This document shows positions 26,406 through 30,553 of a DNA stretch of 64,000 nucleotides, piece by piece. The position numbers and the translations under genes are program-made. Every line of letters starts with the position of its first letter. The first letter of the stretch is position 1. Source of the DNA: a virus; IMG/VR virus record IMGVR_UViG_3300035670_000049, positions 1-64,000 of that record; one strand, given 5' to 3'. A model generated the notes under the pieces. That model ran no database searches and had not been told where the DNA came from. It saw only the letters and a program-made list of their open reading frames with translations.

Positions 26406-26992
26406 TATAATACCTGTCCTAAAATCAAACCTCTGGGCGTATGAAAATCAATAAGGCTAATATATGCAGAGATTTCTTCGTCGGTTTGTCCTAGTGGTAA
26501 TACATGCTTCCTTACTTGATGATGTGGAGCCGTATCATGGAAGGCGACTATTGCCCCACTTTTTAATCTGCCCATATCGTAAAATCGTCTAAATTCTAGG
26601 TGGCGTCCTTCCTGCCAAGAGTCAAAGAAGGCAAAATCAATATCTTCTAGGGGCGCATACTCCATAGAATTGACATTGATGATCTGCATCCTGTTGTACT
26701 CGCCCATGATATTCTGAATATATCTCTCAGCCCGTTCCGCTAACAAAGCATCTGATTCTACAGAAACCCCTCTTCCATGATTATTCATATGAAGAGCCCG
26801 AGACATTTCAAGGGTCGTATGTCCGTTATAGGAGCCTGTTTCTAGCACAAACTCCGGTTGGATTAATCTAACCAAAGAACCAATAAACTCAGAAACTTCA
26901 ATCTCTGTCGCTTCCGAGTCAGGTGAATGCCAGTATTCAGGATGAGGGCACCAACTTCGCGGTGGCGTAAATCTGCTTTCCAAATTGTCCAT
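26405..26992 (-). CDS. Class I SAM methyltransferase (Methyltransf_24-like)
   Basis: VLETGSYNG, FAFFDS, VAFHDT motifs. Confidence 0.85.
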   Translation of the reverse strand: MDNLESRFTPPRSWCPHPEYWHSPDSEATEIEVSEFIGSLVRLIQPEFVLETGSYNGHTTLEMSRALHMNNHGRGVSVESDALLAERAERYIQNIMGEYNRMQIINVNSMEYAPLEDIDFAFFDSWQEGRHLEFRRFYDMGRLKSGAIVAFHDTAPHHQVRKHVLPLGQTDEEISAYISLIDFHTPRGLILGQVL

Positions 26993-27006
26993 ATATTCTC
27001 CAAAAT

Positions 27007-27080
27007 TGGCAGAGGCTAAGGGATTCGAACCCTTACTAAGAGGGCCAAAGTCTCTGGTGCTGCCGTTACACTAAGCCTCA
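27007..27080 (-). tRNA. tRNA-Gln(TTG)
   Basis: Loop CT-TTG-GC, 1:72 mismatch typical of Gln, GCCA. Confidence 0.92.
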
Positions 27081-27084
27081 ATGC

Positions 27085-27315
27085 TTATTTCTTAGATACC
27101 GTGGTCTTAAATGCAGAACCAACAAGTCCCAATAAAACCCATCCAGCAAGTGCTGTTACATAATCAATAGTTGGGCCTCCAAAGACTACTGGAATAAATA
27201 AATTCCAAACAGTCATAAAGATAAATGCCCCTAATCCTATAAATAGGAGGACTAGTAGGATAAATACCATACAAGTAATAACGGCTACAAGTCCATCTTC
27301 TTGAGTTTTACTCAT
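27085..27315 (-). CDS. Small membrane protein
   Basis: Two hydrophobic stretches. Confidence 0.7.
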   Translation of the reverse strand: MSKTQEDGLVAVITCMVFILLVLLFIGLGAFIFMTVWNLFIPVVFGGPTIDYVTALAGWVLLGLVGSAFKTTVSKK

Positions 27316-27503
27316 TCATTCTCCAATACATTTTTATGTACATATCTCCAAGGATGAACACCACCAAACTTTTTCCAATACATTGGAAGATACCTGTTGC
27401 GCCCGTTCTCTGTGGCAGTGTGGACCGTATCGTATTTACAGTGCTTATGTCCACAGGTGCTTTCCGCAATTTGCTTAGTGCGCTTTCTCTTGAAGTTTGC
27501 CAT
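27312..27503 (-). CDS. Small basic hypothetical protein
   Basis: GAGGGTG SD; ATGA overlap with next gene. Confidence 0.65.
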   Translation of the reverse strand: MANFKRKRTKQIAESTCGHKHCKYDTVHTATENGRNRYLPMYWKKFGGVHPWRYVHKNVLENE

Positions 27504-27521
27504 AAATACACCCTCTTAATT

Positions 27522-27596
27522 TGGCTGGCACGCTGGGATTCGAACCCAGATCAACGGATTAACAGTCCGGCATCCTACCCATTGGACGACACGCCA
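27522..27596 (-). tRNA. tRNA-Asn(GTT)
   Basis: Loop CT-GTT-AA, GCCA. Confidence 0.92.
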
Positions 27597-27605
27597 GTAA
27601 AGAGA

Positions 27606-27734
27606 CTAGGGAGACTAAGGCAACATCGGAGATTTTAGGTAGACTCTCCCGCCGCAAGACAGTAATAACGAGTAACCAACGAGTAGACAAATCGTAAAAT
27701 GGTGTCGAAGTATCCGATATCTACACTGCCCTAG
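27606..27734 (-). ncRNA. Y-RNA-like unit 1 (U-rich cargo)
   Basis: CTAGGG/CCCTAG stem, CAGTGT, ATATCGGA/TCCGATGT stem, TACTTC, TTAGTCT. Confidence 0.75.
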
Positions 27735-27748
27735 AAGTTATACGTAAT

Positions 27749-27880
27749 TTAGTGAGATTAAATTCAATCAGATTTTTAACGCTTGCGCGCTCGGCTGGAT
27801 TCGAACCAGCAATAGTTTCTTTAAGAGAGAAAAATCTTTACCGTTAGATTACGAAGTATCTGATTAAGACACTACACTAA
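27749..27880 (-). ncRNA. Y-RNA-like unit 2 (tRNA-Lys(CTT)-like cargo)
   Basis: TTAGTG/CACTAA stem, TAGTGT, TACTTC, TTAATCT; D, anticodon and T arms inside. Confidence 0.8.
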
Positions 27881-27926
27881 GAGTTGTCCTTTCCCCGCCC
27901 CTTGAAAAAGGGACAGAGACTGAACA

Positions 27927-28016
27927 CTAGTTGATGTGCCGTCGCACATCCGGTAGTACAGTTGGGCAGCGCGCATTTAATGATGCCCGATGTACTACCC
28001 GATGAGCGATGACTAG
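27927..28016 (-). ncRNA. Structured RNA without complete Y scaffold
   Basis: GGTAGTACA/TGTACTACC, GGGCA/TGCCC, GATGTGC/GCACATC stems. Confidence 0.45.
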
Positions 28017-28148
28017 GAAGATTAATTCAGAACAGTAACGTTTTCCTGTGCTGCCGTAACACTTAACCCTGCCCGTTGTGCAGGATTGGGGAGTCGAACC
28101 CCTCTTGGGCATCCTAATTGCGAAGTAACTGTTTCCTACACTATCCTA
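28014..28148 (-). ncRNA. Y-RNA-like unit 3 (circularly permuted tRNA, YrlA-type)
   Basis: TAGGA/TCCTA stem, motifs; T arm, closed acceptor stem, D arm in that order. Confidence 0.8.
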
Positions 28149-28164
28149 TAGATGTAAAATTTAT

Positions 28165-28339
28165 ATAGTGAGATTAATCGGATCGGGGGCTTTATCGTCT
28201 TGCTTCCGATTCGTCACTTAGTCCTTTCCTAAGAGTCACTAGGGCCATCCTCCCATGCTGGCATAATATACCTTATACTGGTTCTTGTGTTTTCGAGACA
28301 AAAGTTGTGTAGAAGTACCCGATTCCCACACTACACTAT
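28165..28339 (-). ncRNA. Y-RNA-like unit 4 (multi-hairpin cargo)
   Basis: ATAGTG/CACTAT stem, TAGTGT, GGAATCGGG/CCCGATCC, TACTTC, TTAATCT. Confidence 0.75.
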
Positions 28340-28385
28340 GTGAATGACAGCCTTGCCTCCAAGGCTCTACTTTATTATAACATAG

Positions 28386-28529
28386 ACTAGAAGGATAAGT
28401 CAACTAGGCTTGCCCAAGAGGATTCGAACCTTCTTCTCTGGACCTTCAAATCCAGCGTGTTGCCATTACACCATATTGACGGGCGGTTTTTGGAGTCAAT
28501 AGAAGAATTCCTAATCTACACTATCTAGT
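28386..28529 (-). ncRNA. Y-RNA-like unit 5 (tRNA-like cargo, 8-nt anticodon loop)
   Basis: ACTAGA/TCTAGT stem, TAGTGT, TTCTTC, TTATCCT. Confidence 0.72.
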
Positions 28530-28542
28530 TTAATGTCTTAGT

Positions 28543-28617
28543 TGGTAGCCCTACGGGGAATCGAACCCCGATTGTCGGATTGAAAGTCCGGTATCCTAGC
28601 CATTAGACGATAGGGCC
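28543..28617 (-). tRNA. tRNA-Glu(TTC), inside the Y-RNA array
   Basis: Loop CT-TTC-AA, intact acceptor, CCA. Confidence 0.93.
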
Positions 28618-28621
28618 GCTA

Positions 28622-28715
28622 TTTAGGGAGGTTAAGACTGAACGGAAAACAGGTTATATCCGTAGATAATAACTCTCTTGTGCAAAGAAGTAACCGTTTC
28701 AAACACTGCCCTAAA
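28622..28715 (-). ncRNA. Y-RNA-like unit 6 (minimal, cUACGg hairpin)
   Basis: TTTAGGG/CCCTAAA stem, CAGTGT, TACTTC, TTAACCT; begins 4 nt after TROVE stop. Confidence 0.75.
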
Positions 28716-28719
28716 AATA

Positions 28720-30312
28720 TTACCAGTTCTTGATTTCTTCAACCATTGCATTACCCTTCTCGTAAATAGCAATCAGATCAAAAATCTTGTCTGACCAACC
28801 ATTTAGAAGAACAACGTTCTTCGCATTAGAAGGAGTCTGCTTTGTTCCGTATGCGTTGATATCCAGCGAGAACAACTTCGCATTTGGATACTTCTTAGCG
28901 TAGGTTGCCCACATCTTGTGAACATCCCTTACCTGAGAGCCATTATAGCCCCAACCATATCCAGCGTAGTAGTTATCTCGGTGCTGCGAGTCATAGCACT
29001 GCATGTCAGAGATAAGAATTACCCTATCAACTTCCTTTGTGCCCAATTCCTCAAAGGCAAGCCAAGCGTTTGTGCTAAAACCTACCCCAAGGCCCTTGAT
29101 TTGCTCAATATTAGTCATCATCGTATCGTCTGGATTAATACGAGCAGTCTTTGCCCTATCCCCAAATCCGATAACGATTGAGTCTGCTGACTTCTTAGCC
29201 GCAATGGCAGCAAGAGTACAAGCAGTATCCTTATATGAAACCTTTGACTTAGCCGAAAGTTTTGAATCCATTGATCCCGACAAGTCTACCAAGATCGCAG
29301 TCTTGCCATCAAGACGAACATTTGAAATAGACTTCTCAAATGCCTGAGCAATTGCTCTTGAAATCTTCTGATCTGAAATTTCACGGTAGGCAGAAAGGAA
29401 TCTAAATGGAAGTTGCTTTGAACGCTTAATCTCGTTCTCGTCCGTGATGCGGGCAAGAATGGGATCAAGATCAACACCCTTTTCTTGGAAGTTGCGAAGG
29501 TTCCGCAATAGAGCCATATAGCCCATATTTGGAGCCACTAATTCCCAATTTTCCTTAGTAGAGCCAAACTTGGAAATAAGAGTTTCCCAAGTCACCCCTG
29601 ACTTCTTAATTAACTCTATGGCTTCTGCGTCAAGCGAATCCTTGGCAAGCAGAGCCTTTAGTGCTGCTGTCTTAGGTAGCGCCTCTACATCTACCTCATC
29701 CTTGGTTAAGTAGTTATATAGTGCCTTGCCGATAGCCGGATGCACTAACTGTGCAACTTGCCCAAGAGAAACATCAGCCTTTGACGAATCATACTTATTT
29801 AGTTGATACTCGTCAAAATTTAGGAACGCCTTAGCAAGTCCCTTCTTCAATGAGTTAGGGAAGTTTGCATGAGTTACGTTTGGACGCTTTGGGTCCTTCC
29901 CGTAATTATTAGAATAGTAGGCTACAATCTCGCTTAACTCGTCTGCACGCTTTACAATCTTAGGTGTATACTCCACCACGAAAGGCTTGCATTCAGGAAT
30001 CCTTGCGGCTTCTACCAGAATGACCTGTGGAGTTGTGCGCAGATAGAGAACATTTCTAGCATATGCTGCTAACTGCAATGGGAACCGTGGATCAATCTTT
30101 GCAACGGTCTTGATGTTCTCAACAATTTCCTTGCTGATCTTCTTGCCCTTTGCATAGAATAAATCTTCATTCCAAAATGCGCCCACAACCTGTTCAACGA
30201 GTTTATCGCGTGCATCCAGTTTAAATGCTACCGCACCCTCGTAATTGGTTGTAGTCTCTTCCGTTAACCTTTGTGTAACCTTTTCACGCTTAGTCGCGTT
30301 TAATCGTGCCAT
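28720..30312 (-). CDS. rsr: Ro60/TROVE domain RNA-binding protein with vWA domain
   Basis: TTNYEGAVAF, TWETLIS, MGYMALLRNLRN, SKQLPFRFLSAY, DLSGSM MIDAS. Confidence 0.95.
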   Translation of the reverse strand: MARLNATKREKVTQRLTEETTTNYEGAVAFKLDARDKLVEQVVGAFWNEDLFYAKGKKISKEIVENIKTVAKIDPRFPLQLAAYARNVLYLRTTPQVILVEAARIPECKPFVVEYTPKIVKRADELSEIVAYYSNNYGKDPKRPNVTHANFPNSLKKGLAKAFLNFDEYQLNKYDSSKADVSLGQVAQLVHPAIGKALYNYLTKDEVDVEALPKTAALKALLAKDSLDAEAIELIKKSGVTWETLISKFGSTKENWELVAPNMGYMALLRNLRNFQEKGVDLDPILARITDENEIKRSKQLPFRFLSAYREISDQKISRAIAQAFEKSISNVRLDGKTAILVDLSGSMDSKLSAKSKVSYKDTACTLAAIAAKKSADSIVIGFGDRAKTARINPDDTMMTNIEQIKGLGVGFSTNAWLAFEELGTKEVDRVILISDMQCYDSQHRDNYYAGYGWGYNGSQVRDVHKMWATYAKKYPNAKLFSLDINAYGTKQTPSNAKNVVLLNGWSDKIFDLIAIYEKGNAMVEEIKNW

Positions 30313-30525: not shown

Positions 30526-30553
30526 TATAGCATTTACTCCATACTAGGTTCAA
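30524..30553 (-). promoter_or_regulatory. TTGAACCTA-class promoter upstream of rsr/Y-RNA operon
   Basis: TTGAAC-N18-TATAAT with TG extended -10. Confidence 0.7.

Follow-up and report, generated by a model that had tools for sequence, protein, structure and literature searches.

A 64,000-nt stretch of viral DNA (the window) was analysed, comprising the first 64 kb of the record IMGVR_UViG_3300035670_000049, which is a complete virus genome of 120,336 bp with direct terminal repeats. Six units with a common half-motif come 3' of the stop codon of a Ro60 gene in this window. One of them, unit 2, is an element of 132 nt located on the minus strand at positions 27880–27749; the Ro60 stop codon lies 840 nt upstream of it on the same strand. 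Unit 2 is likely to be a non-chargeable partner of the phage Ro60, an RNA of the Y-RNA type in which a tRNA-Lys mimic is mounted on a handle that would dock on Ro60. The tRNA-like structure is conserved in a related phage, its acceptor end is not that of a tRNA, and the handle is associated with Ro60 genes. The first-pass annotation of this DNA had described a tRNA-Lys(CUU) body grafted into a Y scaffold and presented by Ro60; a tRNA-Lys(CUU)-like body is indeed found within a repeated scaffold, downstream of a true Ro60 gene.

Structure of unit 2

From 5' to 3', unit 2 consists of stem 1, the UAGUGU motif, stem 2, the UACUUCG motif, a cloverleaf, a GCAA hairpin, a U/A-rich linker, the return strand of stem 2, the UUAAUCU motif, and the return strand of stem 1. 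The features of the unit and the neighbouring Ro60 gene are as follows:

27875–27880, minus strand: handle stem 1, 5' strand UUAGUG, paired with 27749–27754 in the minimum free energy (MFE) fold, 6 bp
27869–27874, minus strand: 5' handle motif UAGUGU, one side of an internal loop or bulge, shared by all six array units and by handle units from other Ro60 phages
27858–27867, minus strand: handle stem 2, 5' strand of 10 nt, paired with 27764–27773 in the MFE fold
27852–27858, minus strand: handle motif UACUUCG, which also makes up tRNA positions 1–7; its spacing from UAGUG is constant in all units, and the ARAGORN tRNA start is at 27858
27787–27858, minus strand: tRNA-like body of 72 nt (ARAGORN, Rfam tRNA, segmentation, and pair counts)
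27849–27834, minus strand: D arm, by segmentation
27832–27816, minus strand: anticodon arm with CUU at 27825–27823, by segmentation
27810–27794, minus strand: T arm, by segmentation
27793–27787, minus strand: 3' acceptor strand with only the four inner pairs, by segmentation
27780–27789, minus strand: GNRA hairpin with a 3-bp CGC/GCG stem and a GCAA loop (MFE fold, counterpart in L004)
27774–27779, minus strand: U/A-rich single-stranded linker UUAAAA between the hairpin and the handle, unpaired in the MFE fold; A-rich linkers are found at that spot in L004, L165, and L167
27764–27773, minus strand: handle stem 2, 3' strand (MFE fold)
27755–27763, minus strand: 3' handle motif AAUUUAAUCU with the core UUAAUCU; related UUANYCU and AAUUYUCU motifs precede the 3' closing strand in other units and other phages
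27749–27754, minus strand: handle stem 1, 3' strand CACUAA (MFE fold)
28720–30312, minus strand: Ro60/TROVE gene encoding a protein of 530 aa (Pfam TROVE 8.7e-32, vWA_Ro60 2.1e-6), the presumed protein partner

ARAGORN calls a tRNA-Lys(ctt) at 27787–27858, and the start of this call agrees with the earlier placement of UACUUCG at tRNA positions 1–7. The Rfam tRNA model (RF00005) matches unit 2 with 46.0 bits (E 1.3e-6, gathering score 29); the match is local and covers model positions 5–66, so that the outer acceptor pairs lie outside it. The first reading of the sequence and its arms is correct: the 4-bp D stem, the 5-bp anticodon stem with the 7-nt loop CUCUUAA, and the 5-bp T stem with the loop UUCGAAU are perfect and follow each other in the normal order. 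The conserved tRNA nucleotides U8, A14, G18–G19, U33, A37, U54–U55–C56, and A58 are present. In the RNAfold structure (MFE −31.3 kcal/mol, z-score −2.76), the two stems of the handle are formed, and so are the hairpins of the D, anticodon, and T arms and the one with the GCAA loop. A coding reading of unit 2 was considered and dropped, as no open reading frame (ORF) of at least 50 aa overlaps it.

Acceptor end and comparison with canonical tRNAs

Only acceptor pairs 4–7 (U.G, U-A, C-G, and G-C) are formed in unit 2. Positions 1–72, 2–71, and 3–70 are mismatched, and the same three mismatches are found in the units of L004, L165, and L167. At the would-be discriminator position, unit 2 has G instead of A. 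It also has no CCA, while the other ARAGORN-called tRNAs of the 120-kb genome have an NCCA end in all 25 cases. Of the features of a functional tRNA-Lys (RF00005), unit 2 has the cloverleaf and the elbow nucleotides and lacks the 7-bp acceptor stem and the free 3' NCCA. The features that had been listed as signs of a non-chargeable RNA, the missing 7-bp acceptor with only four pairs left and the missing CCA, are therefore real. The idea that GCAA stands in place of NCCA needs correction: CCA is indeed missing, but GCAA is the loop of a GNRA hairpin that starts right after the stub with zero spacer, and not a substitute 3' tail. The stem of this hairpin could grow to 5 bp if stub pairs were given up. 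Since the stub and the hairpin meet in a three-way junction with a zero-nucleotide connection, they are expected to stack, and they probably make up a closed 7-bp arm of acceptor length. Judging by the 4-bp stub and the lack of a free CCA, the acceptor end should not be chargeable. Unit 2 is probably a non-coding RNA of the Y-RNA type rather than a tRNA serving in translation.

A canonical tRNA-Lys(CUU) with a 7-bp acceptor and an ACCA end is located at 1511–1589 on the minus strand. The first-pass annotation had called this gene intact, and so it is at the acceptor end; its D arm is odd (C8 and a long loop on an unusual stem of 5 bp), and it scores below the Rfam tRNA threshold. The L004 and L005 phages each also have a canonical CCA-ended tRNA-Lys(CUU) elsewhere, with ordinary cloverleaves. 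All these canonical genes have the same anticodon loop CUCUUAA as unit 2 and share its type of T loop; they differ from it in having the 7-bp acceptor and NCCA and in having no handle. Their discriminator is A in the window and the L004 phage and G in the L005 phage. The possibility that unit 2 is a recent duplicate of the tRNA-Lys(CUU) of the phage was rejected; the two are identical at 42 of 72 positions, and unit 2 is no closer to this gene than to other tRNAs.

Conservation in related phages

Close relatives were found through the alignment of Ro60 homologs. The orthology of unit 2 was judged from L004, L005, and, as a positional ortholog, a unit in L006; the contigs of the closest Ro60 relatives, P0002 (85%) and P0003 (81%), both Logan-only, were outside this comparison. 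A megablast search with the locus against the phage collection gave no match.

The counterpart of unit 2 in L004 (Ro60 74% identical) lies just 5' of tRNA-Asn and keeps every element. When comparing the two units, changes on both sides of a pair can be noted in three of the four D-stem pairs, three of the five anticodon-stem pairs, and two of the five T-stem pairs (8/14 in total), and none of the pairs is broken. The anticodon and T loops are identical at 7/7 positions each. The stub retains its four pairs, with U.G replaced by U-A, and is mismatched at the same three positions. The GCAA hairpin and stem 1 are both kept, the former with two pairs swapped in a compensatory way and the latter with one (U-A to A-U), while stem 2 is a 7-bp helix of wholly different sequence at the same place. 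The first-pass annotation had named a lack of arm conservation in related phages as grounds for abandoning its proposal; in L004, the arms are retained with compensatory changes.

The positional ortholog in L005 (Ro60 66%) has the anticodon UCA and a degenerate D loop, and it is devoid of the GCAA hairpin. This UCA anticodon (L005:5911–5980) is of the opal type, and a handle unit at L050:744–816 has CUA. The record of the L005 phage (G007) also contains, at about 11938, a CCA-ended tRNA with the anticodon CUA, which is of the amber-suppressor type and is labelled 'Pyl' by ARAGORN. In L006, the last handle unit before the tRNA-Asn-like start (L006:6215–6360) has a stem-2 sequence near that of unit 2 of the window (AUUAAUCAGAU vs. 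CUUAAUCAGAU). The cargo of this unit is different: it is not a cloverleaf and contains a T-arm-like hairpin. Comparison of these sequences suggests that the cargo may be exchanged inside a retained handle.

Handle motif and its association with Ro60 genes

The half-motif AGTG-N10-12-TWCTTC occurs seven times in the window, where 0.87 occurrences are expected, and six of the seven matches are on the minus strand at 27707–28707, just 3' of Ro60. A search of the whole 120-kb genome with the fuller handle motif finds the six units beside Ro60 and, apart from these, only two plus-strand matches elsewhere, which have a shorter spacing. Unit 2 has all the parts by which the class is defined, namely 5' YAGUG, about 10 nt, U(A/U)CUUC, a U/A-rich YCU motif on the 3' side, and two covarying stems.

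Counted over 141 distinct Ro60-encoding loci, which amount to about 1 Mb, matches to the strict motif number 113 on the Ro60 strand and six on the opposite strand, compared with 2.35 in shuffles. The L004–L011 loci contain 4–7 instances of the relaxed motif each, and L014 contains seven of the strict motif. A DNA-pattern search made without reference to Ro60, in which the handle had to be accompanied by a T loop at tRNA distance, returned 11 viral loci. At least eight of them belong to TROVE-encoding records (L164–L167, L170, L171, L173, and L174); the TROVE gene is within the locus in 4 of the 11 and elsewhere in the same record, 10–20 kb off, in four more. The motif is thus tied to TROVE genomes over very distant phages, whose Ro60 proteins are 30–40% identical. 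The same pattern gave 44 matches in bacterial and archaeal genomes, mostly chance matches in GC-rich coding DNA; only L201, L209 (TROVE adjacent), L211, and L215 look genuine.

The protein encoded at 28720–30312 is, by its sequence similarity, a true Ro60. Among the solved structures, it is nearest to Ro60 of Thermus phage phiLo (9KOP/9L5Y, E 3.7e-27), followed by Xenopus Ro60 (1YVP).

A class of handle-mounted tRNA mimics

At least 20 handles besides that of unit 2 carry a whole-tRNA mimic. For 20 cargos with the normal order of arms, only the tRNA cores were aligned, after segmentation by a script, since MAFFT alignment of whole units misplaced the handle flanks. In this alignment, 93.3% of the cloverleaf cells are paired, compared with 57.7% in shuffles, and the covariation score is 0.904 versus 0.225 for shuffled sequences and at most 0.171 with slid partners. 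Each of the 20 cargos keeps the tRNA fold; this does not imply one continuous history, because the cargos may derive from different tRNAs. The anticodon stems of 15 script-segmented mimics are paired in 75 of 75 cells.

Two arrangements of the junction between the handle and the cargo can be distinguished. In class A (the window, L004, L165, L167, and L215), UACUUCG makes up tRNA positions 1–7 and there is only a 4-bp stub; the L215 unit has an extra hairpin analogous to the GCAA hairpin. In class B (units of L164–L167, L171, L201, and L209), the cargo starts after UUACUUC and has a full 7-bp acceptor. The ARAGORN calls of the cargos have no encoded CCA end, with one doubtful exception, the CAG unit of L050, where the call ends in CCA.

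About a dozen anticodons are represented in the class, including CUU, UUU, UCC, UCA, GUU, UGG, UUG, CAG, CUA, and AGU. Lys-type loops are present in the window, L004, and L201 (CUU) and in L165 (UUU). Orthologous mimics of near-identical phages can differ in this respect: L164 has UGG and L166 has UUG, with only three differences in approximately 140 nt and a double compensatory swap in one anticodon stem, and UUU in L165 corresponds to UCC in L167. Panels of such mimics with varied anticodons are thus present in many phages. The handle motif can be used to annotate these RNAs, which are now mislabelled by tRNA finders as tRNAs, suppressors, or 'SeC/Pyl'.

Two further units of this kind can be mentioned. 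A homolog of unit 5 of the window at L011:5398–5530 forms a cloverleaf with the loop CCUUUAA (anticodon UUU, C in place of U33) and about four acceptor pairs. A handle-like unit at L169:596–672 (minus strand) contains two tandem T-arm hairpins, each preceded by ACUUCGAGUA, and an 11-bp terminal stem.

Comparison with known Y RNAs

YrlA RNAs encoded near Ro60 genes contain a permuted tRNA-like domain (Chen et al. 2014, PMC4201824). Unit 2 resembles the YrlA RNAs of Salmonella, Mycobacterium, and mycobacteriophages (RF02553) in being a small RNA near a Ro60 gene on the same strand, with an end-paired stem, which binds protein in YrlA and presumably does so in unit 2, and a tRNA mimic that is not a decoding tRNA. 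Both mimics have a D arm and a T arm with the contacts of the elbow, and the acceptor-type arm, closed in YrlA, is probably closed in unit 2 as well. The order of the parts is different. In YrlA, the T arm is followed by a closed acceptor stem and the D arm, and the Ro60 stem replaces the anticodon arm, whereas in unit 2 all four arms keep their normal order, the anticodon loop is a true one of 7 nt, and the handle is attached at the acceptor side. The YrlA model gave no match within 26500–29500 at E up to 10; over the whole genome, its best match reached 14.6 bits (gathering score 69) and fell at tRNA junctions outside the array. The earlier statement that the topology differs from that of YrlA is borne out by both the arm order and the covariance model. 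In place of the GNCGAA(N)G motif, the region near the 5' end of unit 2 has UAGUGU...UACUUCG, and only CGAG is present, in the 3' acceptor strand; L165 and L167 carry GUCGAA, but on the 3' side. Unit 2 therefore fits a Y RNA in the broad sense, as it lies beside Ro60 on the same strand and has a terminal stem of its 5' and 3' ends with a conserved internal loop, and it is not a YrlA by any of the specific tests (covariance model, arm order, and GNCGAA). In a scan of Rfam at E up to 10, unit 2 matched only tRNA, the rest being noise, and no family for the handle RNA was found.

The YrlA of M. smegmatis undergoes, in vivo, cleavage by RNase P and the addition of CCA, owing to its 7-bp acceptor stem (PMC4201824); unit 2 has four pairs and a capping hairpin instead. 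Deinococcus Yrn1 has a tRNA-like orientation, with its ends at the acceptor side and an anticodon-like arm (PMC4201824). By this description, the overall topology of D. radiodurans Yrn1, the RNA of the Ro60–Y RNA–PNPase particle (RYPER), is that of unit 2, and its effector module tethers Ro60 to another protein. In Yrn1, the D arm is incomplete, the variable region is missing, and the 'anticodon' loop has 6 nt; unit 2 differs from it as a full cloverleaf for which tRNA finders call a tRNA-Lys.

Ro60 of Thermus phage phiLo, the closest relative with a solved structure, binds two phage-encoded Y-like RNAs, Yrl1 and Yrl2, and host PNPase (PMC12135203). The small RNAs are encoded beside the Ro60 gene in this phage too. 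They were identified by a CGAA-containing bulge, and the paper, as far as it was searched, does not present them as tRNA mimics; the locus of unit 2 differs in its conserved handle, in having six units, and in its cargo of a whole tRNA body. A review of jumbo phages places TROVE proteins with a tRNA-like partner in RNA-repair systems (PMC7824862). A literature search that reached few subscription journals found no paper on this handle or on whole-tRNA cargos of Ro60-associated RNAs. The mimicry in unit 2 goes further than in YrlA, since it comprises a whole tRNA with an isoacceptor-type anticodon loop from which the chargeable end alone has been removed. The role of the tRNA-like domain of bacterial Y RNAs has been a standing question since 2014.

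Possible function of unit 2

The paired 5' and 3' ends of unit 2 form a conserved two-helix handle, in which stem 1, an internal loop of UAGUGU and UUAAUCU, and stem 2 are followed by UACUUC. The Ro60 ring protein encoded by the same phage presumably docks on this handle. The tRNA mimic carried by the handle is complete and L-shaped, and its anticodon stem-loop is that of an authentic tRNA-Lys(CUU); the acceptor end would be sealed by the stub and the GCAA hairpin, if these are coaxially stacked. By analogy with the Ro60–Y RNA–PNPase particles, the handle may hold the RNA on Ro60, so that the mimic is displayed to a tRNA-binding partner, possibly as a ligand for host proteins that read the tRNA shape as given by the elbow and the anticodon arm. 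The phage encodes no RtcB, Rnl2-type RNA ligase, or CCA-adding enzyme, and therefore the partner is probably a host protein. Ro60 of phages may thus be linked to the contest between phage and host over tRNAs.

Several observations speak against this assignment of unit 2 as a Y-RNA-type partner of Ro60. The handle is devoid of the GNCGAA or CGAA sequence of the known bacterial and phage Y RNAs, and no Rfam family other than tRNA, YrlA included, recognises the unit. True orthologs of unit 2 itself number only two or three. The handle units of jumbo phages are 10–20 kb away from the TROVE gene, and one record with a pattern match has no TROVE match. The z-score of the fold is modest, and the 4-bp stub is absent from the MFE structure. 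The searches for the three enzymes mentioned above found none of them in the phage genome and suggested no partner.

These facts can also be considered in terms of other explanations. The handle might be a processing or stability module, for example leader–trailer stems that guide nucleases in a long transcript of tRNAs and non-coding RNAs, with the proximity of Ro60 being mere synteny. On a single strand, the units are intermingled with canonical tRNA-Glu and tRNA-Asn, and no terminator-like site was found between them on the minus strand; the distance from TROVE in jumbo phages and the absence of CGAA would be natural for such a module. However, the motif follows TROVE genomes even where the Ro60 proteins are only 30–40% identical and follows the strand of Ro60, the canonical tRNAs of the array have no handle, and the handle stems, short at 6 and 10 bp and with interruptions, are unlike RNase III stalks, which makes this explanation improbable. 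More doubtful still is a real tRNA-Lys(CUU) released from a Y-like precursor by RNase P and 3' trimming, followed by CCA addition and charging. The precedent of the YrlA of M. smegmatis, a substrate of RNase P that gains CCA in vivo (PMC4201824), the full 7-bp acceptor stems of class B units, and the complete set of nucleotides for tertiary contacts in the elbow favour it; it is difficult to reconcile with the three outer mismatches shared by unit 2, L004, L165, and L167, the G discriminator, the lack of the CCA that all 25 other ARAGORN-called tRNAs encode, and the conserved GNRA hairpin that takes up the 3' end, and a canonical tRNA-Lys(CUU) is already present in the phage. Decay of a tRNA pseudogene that lies between the repeats by chance would account for the truncated acceptor without CCA and for a body still recognised by ARAGORN and Rfam. 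Eight compensatory double changes without a single broken pair relative to L004, the invariant loops, the joint conservation of the hairpin and the handle, and the recurrence of the same design in unrelated phages make it very improbable indeed.

Proposed anticodon decoy and lysine codon bias

The first-pass annotation had proposed that unit 2 is an anticodon decoy or sensor. According to this proposal, the mimic held by Ro60 would present the anticodon arm of an uncharged tRNA-Lys to an anticodon nuclease of the host, or to another defence that targets tRNAs, and would absorb or report its activity. The anticodon stem-loop is the best-kept part of the unit, with a loop identical to that of L004 in spite of swaps in three of the five stem pairs, and in the 15 mimics this stem is paired throughout. 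Further points in favour of the proposal are an acceptor end that is sealed or not needed, the recurrence of Lys-type loops within the class, and the approximately 25 tRNAs that the phage has of its own. The quick switching of anticodons in near-identical phages could reflect an arms race. Codon usage may be relevant here. The Ro60 ORF has 3 AAA and 50 AAG codons for lysine, the AAG share in the genome being 58%. Measured against its own Glu and Gln codons, which are balanced, this AAG bias is the strongest of 52 ORFs (Fisher p 1.2e-6). The same bias in Lys codons is present in the Ro60 genes of L004, L005, L008, L009, and L090 and of some distant phages (L021, L050, and L024); the ratio in the L021 gene is 9/36, while that of GAA/GAG is 34/1. 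ARAGORN calls tRNA-Lys(CUU) and no tRNA-Lys(UUU) in the phage of the window. The bias may reflect either high expression or independence from the host tRNA-Lys(UUU), and an AAA-poor Ro60 gene would suit a protein made while tRNA-Lys(UUU) is scarce.

On the other hand, the preference for AAG may be no more than a sign of high expression of the gene. In the L005 ortholog, the anticodon is UCA and the D loop is degenerate. The dozen or so anticodons of the class, some of which are non-decoding (AUU and AGU), show nothing specific to Lys, and the UGG/UUG and UUU/UCC switches between near-identical phages indicate that the identity of the anticodon is not conserved. Nucleases of the PrrC type prefer modified tRNA-Lys(UUU) over CUU, which is the anticodon of unit 2. 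The role of a decoy or sensor is therefore possible and rather unlikely. A broader and equally tentative variant is that the Ro60 array is a set of exchangeable baits, in which each handle would show a different uncharged tRNA body or anticodon arm in order to intercept or report host defences that target tRNAs, with unit 2 covering tRNA-Lys. If this were true, the defences met by the phage would be anticodon nucleases or tRNA-modifying or tRNA-sensing proteins, and an arms race over tRNA-Lys and other tRNAs would have left its marks in the anticodon switching and in the scarcity of AAA codons in the Ro60 gene.

Other elements of the Ro60 locus

All 26 tRNAs called by ARAGORN and the genes in and around the Ro60 locus are on the minus strand. 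The array includes a tRNA-Glu and is followed immediately by a tRNA-Asn, both of which are canonical and have no handle. No minus-strand terminator-like site was found in the array. A strong sigma-70-like site at 28403–28374 (minus strand) consists of TTGACT, 18 nt, and TG-TATAAT, with 11 of 12 matches; it lies in the 3' part of the handle of unit 5, just upstream of unit 4. A second sigma-70-like site, at 30553–30524, precedes the Ro60 gene.

Between units 3 and 2, at 27881–28013 (minus strand), there is an RNA-like element without a handle. It begins with AGUCAUCGCU, which is followed by a long stem (of the CCGGUAG...CUACCGG type) enclosing a variable insert and then by a small GC hairpin with the loop GACG (AAAG in one copy). 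The element had no match in Rfam and is kept in both close relatives, once in L004 (5866–6010) and twice in L005 (5512–5645 and 5786–5892). In addition, the L004 array contains an ORF of 95 aa (L004:5239–5526) after tRNA-Glu, at the place of unit 5 of the window; its product has a weak match to HNH endonucleases (E 0.0037, below the Pfam cut-off).

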